Positions 1-4,311 of a DNA stretch of 4,311 bases are shown piece after piece. The notes beneath the pieces are model-generated. The model worked only from the letters and a program-made list of their open reading frames with translations, made no database searches and was not told where the DNA came from. Position 1 is the stretch's first letter. Each line of letters begins with the position of its first letter. The stretch comes from a virus (lineage: Duplodnaviria; Heunggongvirae; Uroviricota; Caudoviricetes): IMG/VR virus record IMGVR_UViG_2778261574_000004, positions 1 through 4,311 of that record. One strand, given 5' to 3'. A program made the position numbers and the translations under genes.

Positions 1-17
1 ACCTTGGTTTAAGAGAA
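1..17. other. Left DNA-invertase crossover site (hix/gix/cix-like), truncated by the window start; only the inner half-site GGTTTAAGAGAA (6..17), core TT (4-5) and 3 nt of the outer half are present
   Basis: Positions 1..17 ACCTTGGTTTAAGAGAA are the reverse complement of the inner half and core of the right site (4276..4292). The core dinucleotide is TT here versus AA at the right site, i.e. identical in inverted orientation as needed for inversion by a serine invertase. Confidence 0.6.
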
Positions 18-182
18 CTCGGTACCAGCGGTGAAAAGATCCCCTTGTTGAGCACGGCTAACACATGGAGTGCGCGCCAGACTTTCAACGGCGGGATCAC
101 CGGGGCACTGACAGGGAACGCCGATACCGCGACGAAATTGAAAACAGCCAGAAACATTAATGGCGTCAGGTTCGATGGTTCT
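1..182. repeat. Inverted repeat block A, left copy (pairs with 4111..4292)
   Basis: Direct comparison with the reverse complement of 4111..4292 gives 180/182 identical. The two mismatches (pos 45 T vs C, pos 107 A vs G) are both synonymous (Leu TTG/CTG, Ala GCA/GCG). Identity stops abruptly after the codons for FDGS (182). Confidence 0.95.
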
Positions 183-1565
183 ACGAACATTTCGATACCA
201 ACAATTACGTCTAGAGGACGCGTTACTGCGCTTACCGGTACAACGCAAGGTGCTGCTACTGGATTGCAGATGTATGAGGCATACAACAATGGTTATCCAA
301 CGACTTACGGGAATGTACTTCACCTGAAGGGAGCAGCATCCACTGGTGAAGGCGAGTTGCTCATTGGCTGGAGTGGCACAAATGGCGCTCATGCACCTGC
401 TTTCATTCGATCCAAAAGAGATAGCACTGCTGCGGCATGGTCCGAATGGGCGCAGATCTATACGTCAAAAGATTCAGTTCCCGGCGTCAATGCTAAAGGG
501 GATCAGGATACCTCTGGTAATGCGGCTACAGCGACTAAATTGCAGACAGCATGTACTATTAACGGTGTCTCGTTTGATGGTTCTAAAAATATTGAGCTAA
601 CGGCGGAAGATTTAAATCTTGAGCAAACCGTAGAATTAGCCGCTGGATCATTGCAGAAAAACCAGAACGGCGCAGATATTCCAAACAAAGATAAATTTAC
701 GCAAACAATAGGTGCTTGCCGCTCTTTTCATGGTGCTATTAGCACAGGTGCAGGAAACTGGACGACGGCACAATTGATTGAATGGCTGGATTCTCAAGGG
801 GCATTCAATCACCCATACTGGATGTGCAAATGTTCATGGTCATACGGCAATAATAAAATTATTACCGATACTGGCTGTGGAACTATTCATCTTGCAGGTT
901 GCGTTATTGAGGTTATGGGTAATAAAGGTGCCATGACCATCCGTGTAACAACACCAAGCACTTCCACCGGAGGTGGCACCACTAATGCGCAATTTACTTA
1001 TATAAACCATGGCGCAGATTACGCCCCAGGCTGGCGGCGCGACTACAGCACAAAAAACCAGCAACCTGCATTTGCTTTAGGGCAGACAGGAAGCACAGTT
1101 GGAAATGACAAAGCTGTTGGATGGAACTCAATTAGCGGGGTTTATAACGCAAATATTGGTGGAGCATCTACGTTAATTCTTCATTTTTATATGGGAGCTG
1201 GTAGTTGTCCGGCTGTTCAGTTCCGCGTGAATTATAAGAACGGCGGTATTTATTATCGTTCAGCGCGTGATGGTTATGGATTTGAGGCTGACTGGTCAGA
1301 GTTTTACACCACGACCCGCAAACCCTCTGCGGGAGATGTTGGTGCATACACGCAGGCAGAATGTAACTCAAGGTTTATTACAGGTATTCGCCTTGGCGGT
1401 CTGTCATCTGTTCAGACATGGAATGGTCCCGGCTGGTCTGACAGGTCAGGTTATGTCGTTACGGGTTCAGTTAACGGAAACCGTGATGAATTGATTGATA
1501 CAACTCAGGCAAGGCCAATTCAGTATTGCATTAATGGGACGTGGTATAACGCGGGGAGTATTTAA
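3..1565 (+). CDS. Tail fibre protein, variable C-terminal part A (5'-partial; frame enters from upstream of the window through the left crossover site; first in-window start candidate is TTG at 45; stop TAA 1563..1565)
   Basis: Long ORF (506 aa from TTG 45) whose frame stays open back to position 3 ([22 protein letters not shown]...). Two copies of a fibre-repeat-like motif GNAxTATKLxTAxxINGVxFDGS (nt 114..182 and 516..584), which I recall from lambdoid/P1/Mu-type side tail fibres. Gly/Asn/Thr/Ser-rich beta-type composition; C-terminal tip motif IRLGG...INGTWYN shared with the minus-strand fibre; immediately followed by a tfa gene. Confidence 0.88.
   Translation, partial: LGLRELGTSGEKIPLLSTANTWSARQTFNGGITGALTGNADTATKLKTARNINGVRFDGSTNISIPTITSRGRVTALTGTTQGAATGLQMYEAYNNGYPTTYGNVLHLKGAASTGEGELLIGWSGTNGAHAPAFIRSKRDSTAAAWSEWAQIYTSKDSVPGVNAKGDQDTSGNAATATKLQTACTINGVSFDGSKNIELTAEDLNLEQTVELAAGSLQKNQNGADIPNKDKFTQTIGACRSFHGAISTGAGNWTTAQLIEWLDSQGAFNHPYWMCKCSWSYGNNKIITDTGCGTIHLAGCVIEVMGNKGAMTIRVTTPSTSTGGGTTNAQFTYINHGADYAPGWRRDYSTKNQQPAFALGQTGSTVGNDKAVGWNSISGVYNANIGGASTLILHFYMGAGSCPAVQFRVNYKNGGIYYRSARDGYGFEADWSEFYTTTRKPSAGDVGAYTQAECNSRFITGIRLGGLSSVQTWNGPGWSDRSGYVVTGSVNGNRDELIDTTQARPIQYCINGTWYNAGSI
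438..619. repeat. Inverted repeat block B, left copy (pairs with 3677..3858)
   Basis: Reverse complement of 3677..3858 matches 438..619 with about 5 mismatches (about 97 percent), including perfect runs of 40-66 bp. Encodes WSEWAQ(I/V)[14 protein letters not shown](D/N)[16 protein letters not shown](C/R)[22 protein letters not shown] in both fibre genes. Mapping is left x to right 4296-x. Confidence 0.95.
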
Positions 1566-1567
1566 CG

Positions 1568-2101
1568 ATGATGCACTTAAAAAACATTACTGCTGGCAAC
1601 CCTAAAACAAAAGAGCAATACCAGCTAACAAAGCAATTTAACATCAAATGGCTTTATTCAGATGATGGAAAAAACTGGTATGAGGAACAAAAGAATTTCC
1701 AGCCAGACACTTTGAAAATGGTCTATGACCATAACGGCGTTATTATTTGTATTGAAAAGGATGTTTCAGCAATTAATCCAGAAGGCGCAAGCGTCGTTGA
1801 ATTACCTAATATTACAGCAAATCGCCGTGCTGACATTTCTGGTAAATGGATGTTCAAAGATGGCGTAGTGATAAAGCGAACTTATACCGAGGAAGAACAG
1901 AGGCAACAAGCTGAAAATGAAAAGCAAAGCCTATTGCAACTTGTCAGGGATAAAACCCAACTGTGGGACTCACAGCTACGGCTGGGCATCATTTCCGATG
2001 AGAATAAACAGAAATTAACCGCGTGGATGCTATATGCGCAGAAAGTAGAATCTACAGATACCTCCATCCTGCCAGTAACGTTTCCCGAACAACCAGAATG
2101 A
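1568..2101 (+). CDS. tfa: Tail fibre assembly protein (Tfa/U-type chaperone), partner of fibre A
   Basis: ATG at 1568 (second ATG at 1571) lies 2 nt after the fibre stop, with GGGGAG (1553..1558) as Shine-Dalgarno. 177 aa. C-terminus ...LTAWMLYAQKVESTDTS...PEQPE resembles the conserved Tfa C-terminal motif (recalled lambda Tfa ...LEAWKKYRVLLNRVDTS...). N-terminal ~100 aa about 70 percent identical to the minus-strand paralog. Confidence 0.85.
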   Translation: MMHLKNITAGNPKTKEQYQLTKQFNIKWLYSDDGKNWYEEQKNFQPDTLKMVYDHNGVIICIEKDVSAINPEGASVVELPNITANRRADISGKWMFKDGVVIKRTYTEEEQRQQAENEKQSLLQLVRDKTQLWDSQLRLGIISDENKQKLTAWMLYAQKVESTDTSILPVTFPEQPE

Positions 2102-2104
2102 GAA

Positions 2105-2131
2105 AAGGCCCGTTATCGGGCCTTATTTTTT
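2105..2131. terminator. Bidirectional rho-independent terminator between the convergent tfa genes
   Basis: Perfect 8-bp stem AAGGCCCG (2105..2112) / CGGGCCTT (2117..2124) with 4-nt loop TTAT and 6 GC pairs; followed on + by ATTTTTT (2125..2131) and preceded by GAAAA (giving a U-tract on the minus strand). Sits between the + tfa stop (2099..2101) and the - tfa stop (2130..2132). Confidence 0.7.
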
Positions 2132-2657
2132 ACTCAGGTTTTTGTGGCCATTCTGGCTTTGCCGTATCCACGCGGCTTACAAGAACGCTGTAGCGTTCCC
2201 ATGCTTCCAGTCGGCTGTGGTCCTCATCCGTTGCCATATTCAGCCTTACTGCACGCTCTAGTAGTTGAATGACTGATTCAGCATCAGCAAGAAGTCTAGC
2301 TTTCTGATTTTCTACCTGCTGCTGTAATTCCTCTGCCGTATAAATACGTTTAATAACTGCGCCATCCTTAAACATCCAGTTACCTGAAATGTCGGCACGT
2401 CGGTTAGCAGTAATATCCGGCACTTCAACAACACTTAATCCATCCGGTCTGATAGCTGTTACATCCTTTTCCACATAGCGGATGATGTTATCTTTGTCAT
2501 ACGCTAATTTTATCGTGTCATCCTGGAAGTTCTTTTGTTCCTCATACCAGTTTTTACCGTCTTCTGTAAAAAACCAGATGACATCAAAATGTTTCGTCAG
2601 CTGGTATTGCTCAACTGTTTTTGGATTACCCGCTGTTATATTGATCAAATGCTGCAT
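2130..2657 (-). CDS. tfa: Tail fibre assembly protein (Tfa/U-type chaperone), partner of fibre B; start taken at the ATG (revcomp of 2655..2657) 4 nt after the fibre B stop, not the upstream start at 2855 in the ORF track
   Basis: The 241-aa track ORF overlaps the fibre B 3' end by about 200 nt; the internal Met ([14 protein letters not shown]...) aligns with the start of the plus-strand tfa ([14 protein letters not shown]...). C-terminus ...[27 protein letters not shown] matches the recalled Tfa family C-terminal motif well. Confidence 0.85.
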
Positions 2658-2661
2658 AAAT

Positions 2662-4311
2662 TTAAACCTGTGCCACGTTATACCATGTTCCGTTAATATA
2701 TTTCTGTACCGGTCTATAATATACGCCACCAATGTTATCGGCAGAGTTTGAACCGGTATCCTGGACAATAATGCCGGAATAAACGCAACCTGACGGTGCC
2801 TGATGGGTCCATGTTGTGCCATTATTTGCAGGTTTGTATGATGATGCGCCACCAAGCCTGATATCCCTTACATAGCGGGAATCAAAGTTGCCATAATTAC
2901 CTGGGATAATTTGCGAACCGCAAAGCCAGTTACCGTTATTATCCATGTACGCCTGACCATCGGTGCCATTGGCTGTCCTTGAGTTATTAATCATGTAGAT
3001 GCCAAATTGCTTGTTCCCCAGTCCACCTATCATGAACTTGCGGTCAACGTGATTCTGGCGAAGCAACGCCTGAGCGCTATCTGTATTAACTATATTTTTC
3101 CCAAAGATAGCGTTGTTATCGCGCATCTGAATCCACATACCATTACTGCTGTTAATAGCAAAACGGTCTGAAAGCGTCTCTCCTGAAACATTAAGTCCGC
3201 GTCCCATAGAAACTGCGCCAGTGGCATTATTAATCCATAATGGTCTTAATCCGTTATAAGTCCCCATGTTGTCACCGGAGTTTGTCAACATGAAGTATGT
3301 ATTTGAACCATCATTACGGATAAAAAACCCGTAATTACCATAAGCAATACGGAGGCCGTTTGCTGATTTTGATATTACTTCGCCATTTATAATGGCGTTG
3401 ATAAGAACATACAAAGCATCCCATTTAAGATTCATCAGGTCTTTTGTTGTAGTGCTTTGTTTGCTTCTCCATTTGAAATATTCATTGCCGTTGTCGCCTG
3501 TTTCAAACCACATGAATGAATCAGTATCGCTGTCGGCATCATTTTTAAAACCAATCTTCGCCCAATCAGTATTTCGAATCCAGGCAAGGATTGAGTCATT
3601 TTCAAAAGTAAGCCCGCCGGACAAGATATCGCCTGAACGCTGAACGGCATTATTTGCTTTATTAATGAATTCCTGTAAATTTAAATCTTCCGCCGTTAGC
3701 TCAATATTTTTAGAACCATCAAACGAGACACCGTTAATAGTACGTGCTGTCTGCAATTTAGTCGCTGTAGCCGCATTACCAGAGGTGTCCTGATTCCCTT
3801 TAGCATTGACGCCGGGAACTGAATCTTTTGACGTATAGACCTGCGCCCATTCAGACCAGTTGGCAGAATCAGTATCCCGCCGCGAACGGATATGTACTGG
3901 CGCATGGTCACCACTCGTGCCACTCCAGCCAATGAATAACTCACCTTCGCCAGCAGCGGTGGCACCTTTAAGGTGAAGCACATTGCCATAGGGGGAAGGG
4001 TAGCCATTGTTGTATGCCTCATACAGCTGAATCCCGGATGTTCCCTGTGCATTCGCCTCCAAGGCCGTTACGCGACCGCGTGATACCAGAGTATTGATAT
4101 TAATGTCACCAGAACCATCGAACCTGACGCCATTAATGTTTCTGGCTGTTTTCAATTTCGTCGCGGTATCGGCGTTCCCTGTCAGCGCCCCGGTGATCCC
4201 GCCGTTGAAAGTCTGGCGCGCACTCCATGTGTTAGCCGTGCTCAACAGGGGGATCTTTTCACCGCTGGTACCGAGTTCTCTTAAACCAAGGTTTTTGCGA
4301 ATTGCCTCCGT
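2662..4311 (-). CDS. Tail fibre protein, alternative variable C-terminal part B (5'-partial or silent copy; frame open from the window end through the right crossover site; first in-segment start candidate is TTG at 4245..4243; stop TAA revcomp 2662..2664)
   Basis: 527 aa from TTG. The first ~46 aa are identical to fibre A, the next ~85 aa about 70 percent identical, the next ~60 aa nearly identical (block B), and the remaining ~330 aa unrelated except the C-terminal tip (IRLGG...[11 protein letters not shown]). Same two fibre-repeat motifs (revcomp coordinates 4111..4179 and 3712..3780). The frame upstream of 4245 reads ...[22 protein letters not shown] with no stop to 4311. Confidence 0.88.
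3677..3858. repeat. Inverted repeat block B, right copy
   Basis: See left copy. The 3-nt offset difference from block A reflects one extra codon in the diverged patch on the plus-strand gene (255 vs 252 nt). Confidence 0.95.
4111..4292. repeat. Inverted repeat block A, right copy
   Basis: Reverse complement matches 1..182 with 2 mismatches; mapping is left x to right 4293-x. Confidence 0.95.
4276..4301. other. Right DNA-invertase crossover site, 26 bp: TTCTCTTAAACC-AA-GGTTTTTGCGAA (imperfect dyad around a 2-bp core)
   Basis: Seen in sequence: two 12-bp imperfectly inverted half-sites flank a central AA at 4288-4289. From memory it closely resembles the Hin/Gin/Cin/Pin site family (recalled hixL: TTCTTGAAAACC AA GGTTTTTGATAA). 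It sits exactly at the outer boundary of inverted-repeat block A. Confidence 0.75.

Follow-up and report, generated by a model that had tools for sequence, protein, structure and literature searches.

The window, by which we mean the whole 4,311-nt stretch of DNA analysed here, is the invertible C segment of a P1-like IncY phage-plasmid. It matches the IncY P1-like plasmid pRHB23-C01_3 of E. fergusonii at 100% and P1 at 88.7%, and its identity is supported by homology to annotated P1, Mu, D6 and P7 (Table 1 lists the features); fibre, chaperone and then, convergent on the opposite strand, the second chaperone and fibre follow one another as in the P1 C segment (genes U', U, Sv' and Sv) and in the Mu G segment (U' Mup51, U Mup50). 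As in other segments of the Cin/Gin type, inverted repeats bearing cix sites lie at both ends, two alternative fibre C-termini, each with a chaperone of its own, are placed in opposition between them, the constant part of the fibre lies outside, a serine invertase is encoded next to the segment and both orientations exist. The invertase of the source plasmid is a 193-aa recombinase encoded outside the window, 78 nt from the right cix site, which is only 60-62% identical to Cin of P1 and Gin of Mu and is arranged as in Mu. The flipped segment was found at identical coordinates in the sibling plasmid pRHB23-C02_3, so both orientations occur in nature.

Table 1. Features of the window, with the evidence on which each was placed.
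Feature	Position	Strand	Basis
Left arm, ~0.6-kb inverted repeat	1..626	.	repeat search
Sv' (S'-type) tail-fibre variable part	1..1565	+	PDB 8JU3 (Mu S' fibre) E=2e-183; Pfam gp37_C
Invertible C-type segment	5..4288	.	crossovers between 4/5 and 4288/4289, aligned to annotated P1 cixL/cixR
Sv' C-terminal ~68-aa tip domain (IRLGG...RPIQYCINGTWYNAGSI)	1359..1562	+	homologous to Sv tip and Mu S tip
TfaA, U'-type tail fibre assembly protein, 177 aa plus stop	1568..2101	+	PF02413
TfaA N-terminal alpha/beta domain, aa 1-107	1568..1888	+	model; superposition on 5yvq_B
TfaA C-terminal helical hairpin, aa 108-177, U' lineage (LW.S/TxL.LGIISDE...AWM.Y)	1889..2098	+	model
GC-rich hairpin between convergent chaperone genes	2105..2124	.	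A-run and T-run flanks; terminator scan, both strands
TfaB, U-type tail fibre assembly protein, 175 aa plus stop	2130..2657	-	PF02413
TfaB C-terminal helical domain, aa 108-175, U lineage	2133..2336	-	sequence comparison
TfaB N-terminal domain, aa 1-107	2337..2657	-	third N-terminal lineage
Sv (S-type) tail-fibre variable part	2662..4288	-	PDB 5YVQ chain A (Mu S fibre) E=4e-188; Gp34_trimer domain
Sv C-terminal ~68-aa tip domain (IRLGG...)	2665..2868	-	homology
Right arm, inverted repeat	3670..4292	.	repeat search
Right cix site	4279-4298	.	alignment to annotated P1 cix crossover sites

The inverted repeat is made of two components, 1-191 with 4102-4292 (97%) and 267-626 with 3670-4029 (83%), and its left arm codes for the part shared by both fibre variable regions. 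The left cix site is cut by the window edge, with only 4 nt of its outer half inside. Repeats of ~0.6 kb with cix sites are likewise found in P1 and Mu. The annotated 2922-nt S gene of the source plasmid spans the window start, and Sv' is the set expressed in that plasmid because it is fused there to the constant part Sc upstream; Sv is silent in this orientation and expressed in the sibling plasmid. In each orientation a single fibre-chaperone set is expressed, with each chaperone gene directly 3' of the fibre variable part to which it belongs. The GC-rich hairpin that separates the convergent chaperone genes is likely, as judged from its sequence, a bidirectional terminator, and terminators are annotated at the equivalent position of phage D108.

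Both chaperone genes lie directly downstream of a fibre gene on the same strand (Sv' stop ending at 1565 and TfaA start at 1568; Sv stop at 2662-2664 and TfaB start at 2657 on the minus strand), and the coordinates given for them in a preliminary description of this DNA were right. A 241-aa ORF considered for TfaB was rejected, being merely an upstream extension into the fibre gene; the protein starts with MQHL, 2 nt after the fibre stop. The two proteins belong to the family PF02413 (Caudo_TAP), with 125.4 bits (E=2e-36) for TfaA and 117.3 bits (E=7e-34) for TfaB against a cut-off of 22.1 bits, in matches that run from aa 40 to the C-terminal end. The U' proteins of P1, Mu and D6 share 94-97% identity with TfaA. 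TfaB resembles U of P1 and Mu at 81-82% in its C-terminal domain but at only 71-74% in its N-terminal domain, which is equally distant from the P1/Mu U domain and from U'. This domain and the Sv tip subtype (class 6, whereas the S tips of P1 and Mu are of class 2 and class 4) set the window apart from P1 and Mu. Textbooks or published work already cover these genes, their invertible switch and the chaperones' two-module plan, and the exact sequence is deposited and annotated.

Uneven likeness of TfaA and TfaB and its age

The two chaperones are 57% identical overall (BLASTP), a value that hides a marked unevenness. Their N-terminal identity is 70-71% (70/100, 76/107 or 78/110) and their C-terminal identity 32-36% (25/70, 23/67 or 19/59); with the boundary set between aa 110 and 111, the figures are 71% for aa 1-110 and 34% for aa 111-177 (Fisher p=2.3e-6). 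Among the 32 N-terminal differences, aa 23-32, 46-62 and 67-75 stand out as variable. The preliminary description had put the N-terminal identity at about 70% and the C-terminal one lower, and this difference is robust to gaps: the alignment has one 2-residue gap, which rules out a gap artefact behind the C-terminal divergence. The motifs that it quoted, including DT and PE, are also present in both proteins. A maximum chi-square analysis places the breakpoint at aa 117, with 1 of 10,000 permutations reaching the observed statistic (p = 1e-4), directly after the conserved stretch KDG.VIKR.YT.EE.QQ.EN.K..LL. Moreover, an inverted repeat found independently in the DNA (1568-1923 with 2302-2657, 71% complementary) ends where the protein similarity drops. 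The sharp change in similarity near the domain boundary agrees with the initial view of the pair as modular paralogs.

U and U' of P1, Mu and D6 behave alike, their N-terminal domains being 71-72% identical and their C-terminal domains 31-34% (~71% against ~33% in P1 and Mu). Within the family as a whole, a C-terminal identity of 34-37% is typical for any two members, while the N-minus-C identity gap of TfaA and TfaB falls at the 99.6th percentile of family pairs. It is the N-terminal conservation that is odd, as had been suspected from the start. The uneven likeness is real, but it is mostly explained by published work.

To account for it, the preliminary description had offered either a recent duplication or a second function shared by the N-terminal domains. 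The first option, together with recent gene conversion, is ruled out by saturation of the synonymous sites in both domains (pS 0.77-0.98) without any near-identical tract. The N-terminal domain has a dN of 0.18 with saturated dS, and no gene-conversion tract was detected in the DNA of the two genes, where the longest identical run is 26 nt and third-position identity is 0.4-0.65. Both the recurrence of the same split in P1, Mu and D6 and the existence of three N-terminal lineages, mutually 71-74% identical, also speak against a recent event. Orthologous C-terminal domains show a dN/dS of 0.02-0.11, indicating strong purifying selection within each type. The C-terminal domains of U and U' are separate old lineages.

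The N-terminal domain and the fibre tip

The reference structure for this family is PDB 5YVQ, the complex of Mu Tfa (gene U) with the tip of fibre S, which reportedly was described by North et al. in 2019 (Nat Microbiol 4:1645). An AlphaFold2 model of TfaA obtained with a 105-sequence alignment (pLDDT 97.9, against 47.5 from the single sequence) has strands and helices over aa 3-103, followed by helices at 108-138 and 144-162, an architecture that pairs an alpha/beta N-terminal domain resembling chain B of 5YVQ with a helical hairpin at the C-terminus. Residues 1-104 of the model superpose on 5yvq_B with an rmsd of 0.8 A over 104 columns (TM 0.97, 69% identity, Foldseek E=1e-15), so that TfaA is predicted to have the N-terminal fold and the two-module plan of the Mu protein. 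The prediction covers TfaA, and the fold of TfaB is taken from its 71% N-terminal identity.

The preliminary description had placed the contact with the fibre in the C-terminal domain. Structure and literature point the other way: the Tfa chain of 5YVQ has 103 ordered residues only (1-103), and a passage of PMC9608196 that cites North 2019 assigns fibre binding to the N-terminal domain and describes the C-terminal domain as conserved, structurally unsolved and thought to trimerise. Passages in the citing literature also state that Mu Tfa is retained on the fibre tip and aids LPS binding. A comparable case is the cyanophage Pam3, where gp25 sits on fibre gp24 with an N-terminal beta-sandwich that grips the tip and C-terminal helices that form a trimeric bundle (PMC9608196). 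This chaperone, solved in full, follows the same functional plan as Tfa with a simpler N-terminal domain and a distant sequence, but, unlike Mu Tfa, which remains at the tip, it is absent from the virion. By analogy with Mu, we infer that TfaA and TfaB fold and trimerise their cognate fibres and bind the fibre tip. The N-terminal domains of both would do the docking, by homology to the Mu S-U complex, and the docking site of the TfaA domain would be the Sv' tip, as 5YVQ and the literature suggest. The entry for the Mu S' fibre, 8JU3, contains the fibre alone, with no U' chain, and our literature search found no relevant publication on it.

The two fibres of the window were initially considered to carry unrelated domains. 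Their receptor-binding bodies do differ, yet both end in ~70 aa that are homologous between them (38%, E=2e-10) and have RP.Q..INGTWYN in common. This homology of the tips accounts for the shared type of N-terminal domain, and docking on a shared tip domain is the form in which the second option of the preliminary description, a common function, fits the data.

Across loci, identity in the tip correlates with identity in the N-terminal domain (Mantel r 0.89 or 0.60) more strongly than with identity in the C-terminal domain (0.79 or 0.49), and the same is seen in the partial correlations (0.75 or 0.46 for the N-terminal and 0.46 or 0.26 for the C-terminal domain); the stronger correlation could come from linkage alone, tip and N-terminal domain being adjacent on the DNA. 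In the IMG/VR loci, the N-terminal class of TfaB is always found beside tip class 6.

Within the family, the N-terminal sequence does not closely follow the tip subtype. N-terminal class 3 occurs with tip classes 2, 4 and 6, and the distant protein P0124 stands beside a tip 66% identical to that of Sv while its N-terminal domain is equally far from U and U'.

Two lineages of C-terminal domain

Direct homologue searches returned almost only near-identical relatives, and the diversity described below comes from a library clustered at 50% and from look-ups with single representatives. The U lineage of TfaB is the commoner one, its C-terminal domain being present in 290 phage records against 63 for the U' lineage, and it is shared with P2 G and lambda-type Tfa. 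This lambda Tfa/P2 gpG branch of PF02413 keeps the C-module motif L.AW..Y..L..VDTS...WP..P, and P2 G-type proteins are 72-82% identical to the C-terminal domain of the U lineage. The U domain is closer to that of the lambda-type Tfa of HK630 (41.5%) than to U' (34-37%); the lambda-type N-terminal domain and Stf tip (an HxH-repeat) are unrelated to those of the window. Of 109 family members, 42 exceed U' in the identity of their C-terminal domain to that of U.

The U' lineage is spread in a similar way. The closest relatives of the TfaA C-terminal domain are those of SEN34 (47%), phiT5282H (45%) and Cartapus (43%), in which U'-lineage domains are joined to unrelated short or long N-terminal domains and serve unrelated tips. 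In the Yersinia phage vB_YpM_23, a U'-like C-terminal domain is combined with an N-terminal domain of the P1 U type and a tip of the P1 S type. Among distant Tfas with a Mu-type N-terminal domain, 8/8 follow a tip of the INGxW type, and their C-terminal domains belong to the U lineage in four cases and to the U' lineage in the other four; for two of the latter (P0124 and P0145) the tips are 57-66% identical to the Sv tip of the window. The proposal that C-terminal divergence tracks the fibre tips is not supported by these data, since both lineages occur on the same type of tip and tips like that of Sv stand beside U'-lineage domains. In this line, the identities of the N- and C-terminal domains are nearly uncorrelated across the family (r=0.14).

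Probable module shuffling and its rivals

We consider it probable (about 0.7) that TfaA and TfaB combine a shared tip-docking N-module with two different assembly modules, and that they are not the products of a recent duplication with co-diverged C-termini. The N-terminal alpha/beta domain (aa 1-~105) would be an adaptor that docks on the last ~70-aa tip domain of the fibre, and purifying selection would keep it at about 70% identity; both chaperones would share one kind of N-terminal domain because both fibres share one kind of tip (RLGG...RP.Q..INGTWYN). The C-terminal hairpin (aa ~108-177) would act as a generic oligomerisation and assembly module, blind to the identity of the tip and existing in at least two old lineages, one U/P2-G/lambda-like and the other U'-like. 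The chaperone genes would recombine around the domain boundary, here near aa 117, and each paralog would carry one C-terminal lineage because these genes are mosaics. The occurrence of the lineages both on the same tips and on unrelated N-terminal domains and tips argues that the asymmetry reflects such shuffling of modules and not co-divergence with the tip. The published rule for these chaperones is that the N-terminal domain is not conserved and the C-terminal one is, the opposite of what is seen for the U/U' pair; the rule would be reversed here because the fibres have the same kind of tip and the C-terminal domains stem from two lineages.

An unlikely alternative, though the best of the rivals, is that the C-terminal domain is specific for the fibre and diverged with it after duplication, each chaperone acting through its C-terminus on its cognate fibre alone, and that the N-terminal domain has a common second function. 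Across 187 fibre-chaperone pairs taken from close relatives, an S'-type body invariably accompanies the U' C-terminal class, which in 68/69 cases lies beside tip class 1, and the C-terminal domain may on this account have a role in matching something upstream of the tip. The correlation of C-terminal identity with the tip (Mantel r 0.79, 0.49) and the purifying selection on C-terminal domains of each type (dN/dS 0.02-0.11) would also be expected. However, this alternative is hard to reconcile with the order of just the N-terminal domain on the fibre in 5YVQ and the binding role given to it in the literature, nor does it account for U'-lineage domains that serve fibres of the P2-H/P1-S type (vB_YpM_23), Sv-like tips (P0124, P0145) and unrelated tips (SEN34, Cartapus). 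The duplication is moreover old, and the U domain lies nearer to that of lambda-type Tfa than to U'.

Still less probable is selection for unlike oligomerisation modules, which would prevent U and U' from assembling into mixed, non-productive oligomers. The C-terminal helical modules would then make up a small set of mutually orthogonal lineages, which invertible segments and multi-prophage lysogens have been selected to combine; we doubt this strongly, but if true the C-terminal difference between U and U' would be functional and not an accident of mosaic ancestry. All the invertible segments seen do pair two different C-terminal lineages (P1, Mu, D6, the window, vB_YpM_23, Cartapus, Fels-2 and PhiR44_2), and oligomerisation has been assigned in the literature to the C-terminal domain; but these segments probably descend from one ancestor and are not independent cases, and with one set transcribed per orientation U and U' would rarely meet. 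Random family pairs differ just as much, with a typical C-terminal identity of about 30%, and it is because the C-terminal identity of U and U' is no lower than this that we rank low both this idea and the next.

A constraint on the DNA itself, by which similar 3' ends only 28 nt apart would make a long near-palindrome unstable in E. coli and dissimilar ends would survive, agrees with the start of similarity ~190 nt to either side of the centre (repeat arms 378 nt apart) and with the ~41% identity of the C-terminal coding DNA, but it is very improbable, as synonymous changes alone would break the palindrome and leave the 33% protein identity unexplained, the N-terminal coding DNA has itself diverged too far (72%, no run above 26 nt) to be of consequence, the nesting of each C-terminal domain with relatives in other phages finds no explanation, and the U' type seems to occur without an inverted partner in phage JL22, which matched window 1-2125 only.

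With module shuffling as the preferred reading, the U/U' pair has an N-terminal domain that follows the last ~70 residues of the fibre and a C-terminal domain that comes in interchangeable old lineages. For the engineering of host range in phages and tailocins, this suggests that the fibre tip and the N-terminal domain of the chaperone should be transplanted as one unit, and that either C-terminal lineage should work in such transplants. Natural recombinants have moved the same unit, the last ~65 fibre residues travelling with the first ~60 of the chaperone: at locus L091, the last ~65 aa of the fibre and aa 1-62 of Tfa have been exchanged as one patch.

The invertible segment

When tested at the sequence level, the region showed every defining feature of the Cin/Gin-type invertible fibre segments. 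The Escherichia fergusonii plasmid pRHB23-C01_3, a 96-kb IncY P1-like phage-plasmid, matches the 4311-base window at 100%; the invertible C segment of phage P1 matches it at 88.7%, and the G segment of Mu and D108 matches its central 3 kb at 85-87%. The layout is the classical one of the P1 C and Mu G segments, with inverted repeats and two convergent fibre-chaperone sets. The constant fibre part Sc is fused to the variable part Sv' of the + strand set in the source plasmid and to Sv in the sibling plasmid pRHB23-C02_3, which has an identical length and comes from the same sheep-farm sample. The segment 5-4288 lies at identical coordinates in opposite orientations in the two siblings (loci L165 and L180), and therefore the switch is active and flips in nature.

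Features of the window, with their matches and particulars
Feature	Position	Strand	Remarks
Crossovers	4/5 and 4288/4289		window ends aligned to annotated P1 cix crossovers
Inverted repeats	1-626 and 3670-4292		arms unevenly conserved: outer 191 nt 97%, further in 83%
Internal direct repeat, one in each fibre variable part	114-191 vs 516-593; 3712-3780 vs 4111-4179		73-74% identical, 399-402 nt apart, coding for GNA(D/A)TATKL.TAR.INGV.FDGS
S'-type fibre part	to 1565	+	PDB 8JU3, E=2e-183
TfaA, 177 aa	1568-2101	+	after the S'-type fibre part; U' by P1 annotation
GC-rich hairpin AAGGCCCG-TTAT-CGGGCCTT	2105-2124		within the 28-nt gap between the convergent chaperone genes; A-run on one side, T-run on the other; predicted terminator score on both strands
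TfaB, 175 aa	2657-2130	-	after the S-type fibre part; U by P1 annotation
S-type fibre part	to 2662	-	PDB 5YVQ chain A, E=4e-188
U-type set	2337-2657, 2665-2868	-	cassette other than that of P1 or Mu; fibre tip a distinct subtype
DNA inverted repeat	1568-1923 / 2302-2657		71%; independently detected

Just past the right end of the window (position 4311), the segment is flanked by an invertase (L165 7866-8447) other than P1 Cin, a serine recombinase of 193 aa that shares only 60-62% identity with either Cin or Gin and, like gin of Mu, is oriented away from the segment. Farther on, at 8580-8804, a remnant of 74 aa has 91% identity with the Cin N-terminus, so this enzyme appears to be the replacement of an earlier invertase.

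Uneven identity and age of the two chaperones

Both chaperones belong to the Tfa family PF02413 and carry all its sequence-level defining features when tested, with chaperone activity itself as their putative role. TfaA is essentially the same protein as U' of P1 and Mu, and TfaB together with its fibre tip forms a variant cassette that is common in enterobacterial prophages. In the record of phage P7, the counterpart of the U'-type gene (L004 1874-2407) is split in the annotation into the ORFs Ua (282 nt) and Ub (252 nt), as though a frameshift or stop lay within it, and the gene labelled U' is actually of the U type.

The two proteins are 57% identical overall, a value that hides 70-71% in the N-terminal domain (boundaries at aa 1-100, 1-107 or 1-110) and 32-36% over the remaining 59-70 C-terminal residues (Fisher p=2.3e-6). 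The preliminary description had thus rightly reported a conserved N-terminal and a diverged C-terminal part, and the sequence motifs it quoted are all present; the contrast stays in a pairwise alignment with gaps handled, which holds a single 2-residue gap. The best breakpoint of similarity falls at aa 117, its statistic being reached in 1 of 10,000 permutations, and the DNA inverted repeat of the chaperone genes ends at the same point. The U/U' pairs of P1, Mu and D6 show 71-72% and 31-34% in the two domains, and such unevenness is not peculiar to the window.

The recent duplication previously proposed does not agree with the nucleotide data: synonymous divergence has reached saturation in both domains (pS 0.77-0.98), and a search for a near-identical tract between the two genes found none, the longest identical run being 26 nt. 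Third-position identity is 0.4-0.65 in N-terminal windows; at non-synonymous sites the divergence reaches 0.8-0.9 in the C-terminal domain, against 0.18 in the N-terminal one. The C-terminal domain of TfaB is 81-82% identical to that of P1/Mu U. Its N-terminal domain is equally far from P1/Mu U (71-74%) and from U' (71%), which makes at least three old N-terminal lineages, held at a plateau of ~70% identity by purifying selection.

The N-terminal domain and the fibre tip

The fibre domains had been taken as unrelated, which holds for the receptor-binding bodies (gp37_C-type in Sv', Gp34_trimer-type in Sv) but not for the tips. The last ~70 residues of both fibres are homologous (38% identity, E=2e-10), share IRLGG...SG.V.(T/S)G...RP.Q..INGTWYN and align each with the Mu S tip. 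A tip of one kind on both fibres offers a simple reason for the N-terminal domain common to both chaperones, which would dock on it.

In the AlphaFold2 model of TfaA (alignment of 105 family sequences, pLDDT 97.9), an alpha/beta domain (aa 3-103) is followed by two long helices (108-138 and 144-162). Foldseek gives this model one significant PDB match, 5yvq_B, the chain of Mu Tfa in its fibre complex; only 103 residues of that chain are ordered, and these overlay the N-terminal domain (rmsd 0.8 A, TM 0.97, 69% identity). Passages of PMC9608196 citing the Mu structure assign binding of the distal fibre to the N-terminal domain, describe the C-terminal domain as absent from the solved structure, and present it as conserved and thought to make a trimerising helical bundle. 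The assignment of fibre contact to the C-terminal domain in the preliminary description is therefore inverted. Other published reports indicate that Mu Tfa remains on the tip and helps LPS binding.

Among 187 distinct fibre-chaperone pairs, taken from 160 IMG/VR loci and named phages, the C-terminal domains fall into only two classes, against seven for the N-terminal domains and six for the tips; the N-terminal class mostly goes with that of the tip, and the upstream fibre body is highly mosaic. Tip distances correlate with N-terminal distances at Mantel r=0.89 in the close-relative set and 0.60 in a diverse set of 16 pairs (partial r 0.75 and 0.46), and with C-terminal distances at 0.79 and 0.49 (partial r 0.46 and 0.26), although tip and N-terminal domain are DNA neighbours and linkage alone could yield the former correlations. 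The pairing is not strict, with N-terminal class 3 found beside tip classes 2, 4 and 6, and the N-terminal domain of the distant representative P0124 is at the same distance from U and U'. The - strand pair of IMGVR_UViG_2537562172_000001 (L091) is a natural recombinant, in which the last ~65 fibre residues and chaperone residues 1-62 were exchanged in one piece, a patch of P1-S/P1-U-type sequence within an otherwise S'-type fibre body and U' chaperone.

C-terminal lineages and the probable mosaic origin of the chaperones

The U-type C-terminal domain is present in 290 phage records, among them those of P2 G-type and lambda-type Tfa proteins, and the U' type in 63. The lambda-type Tfa of HK630 is 41.5% identical to U in this domain, closer than U' is (34-37%, varying with domain boundary and alignment), yet its N-terminal domain gives no alignment at all and its Stf ends in an unrelated HxH-repeat tip. 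Similarly, the closest relatives of the U' C-terminal domain beyond the Mu/P1 group (43-47%, sharing W..(E/Q)L.LG.ISD...AW..Y) carry unrelated tips and unrelated N-domains of other lengths, as in SEN34 (117 aa), Cartapus (131 aa) and phiT5282H (198 aa). Across an alignment of 110 sequences (106 family representatives plus TfaA, TfaB, Mu U and P1 U), N-terminal identity hardly correlates with C-terminal identity (r=0.14), the gap between both values for U/U' lies at the 99.6th percentile, and 42 of the 109 other sequences have a C-terminal domain nearer to U than that of U' is.

We consider it fairly probable (about 0.7) that these are two-module chaperones, a tip-constrained N-terminal adaptor and interchangeable old C-terminal assembly lineages joined by mosaic recombination. 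The adaptor would dock on the tip domain common to both fibres, and the C-terminal helical hairpin would serve as a generic module for oligomerisation and assembly; U and U' would have one C-terminal lineage each because recombination close to the domain boundary makes mosaics of chaperone genes.

The model of the preliminary description, a fibre-specific C-terminal domain that diverged along with the fibres, draws on the constant position of the U' C-terminal domain beside S'-type bodies among close relatives, but we find it improbable, being contradicted by the structure and by natural hybrids. In the Mu-like Yersinia phage vB_YpM_23 (L166, 164-1405), the left chaperone is a hybrid of a P1-U-type N-terminal domain and a C-terminal domain like that of U' (63% identical to it) and adjoins a P2-H/P1-S-type tip. 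Eight distant Tfas, whose N-terminal domain is of the Mu type (22-58% identical), all follow a fibre ending in a (R/Y)..Q..(I/V)(N/D)G.W tip, and half of them carry the U lineage and half the U' lineage (4/8 each). In two of U' lineage the tip resembles that of Sv, at 66% identity for P0124 and 57% for P0145; in the window, the Sv tip is paired with the U-lineage TfaB. These hybrids and distant Tfas, with both lineages on one tip type, show that tip type is followed by N-terminal type and not by C-terminal lineage, the U and U' domains being separate old lineages spread independently of tips.

That two oligomerisation modules were kept different for orthogonality seems less probable still and is not needed, U/U' C-terminal identity being no lower than that of random family pairs (residual z=-0.2). 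Least plausible, and equally superfluous, is selection against a DNA palindrome where the two genes meet tail to tail, since synonymous substitutions would suffice to remove it.

The modular plan of Tfa chaperones is already published; the one small addition here is that the usual rule of variable N and conserved C is reversed inside the U/U' pair, for an understandable reason. In the P2-like phage Cartapus (L169 1296-4510) a separate invertible segment encodes two short chaperones, of 131 and 139 aa; neither has an N-terminal domain related to the Mu type, and here too the C-terminal domains come from two different lineages.
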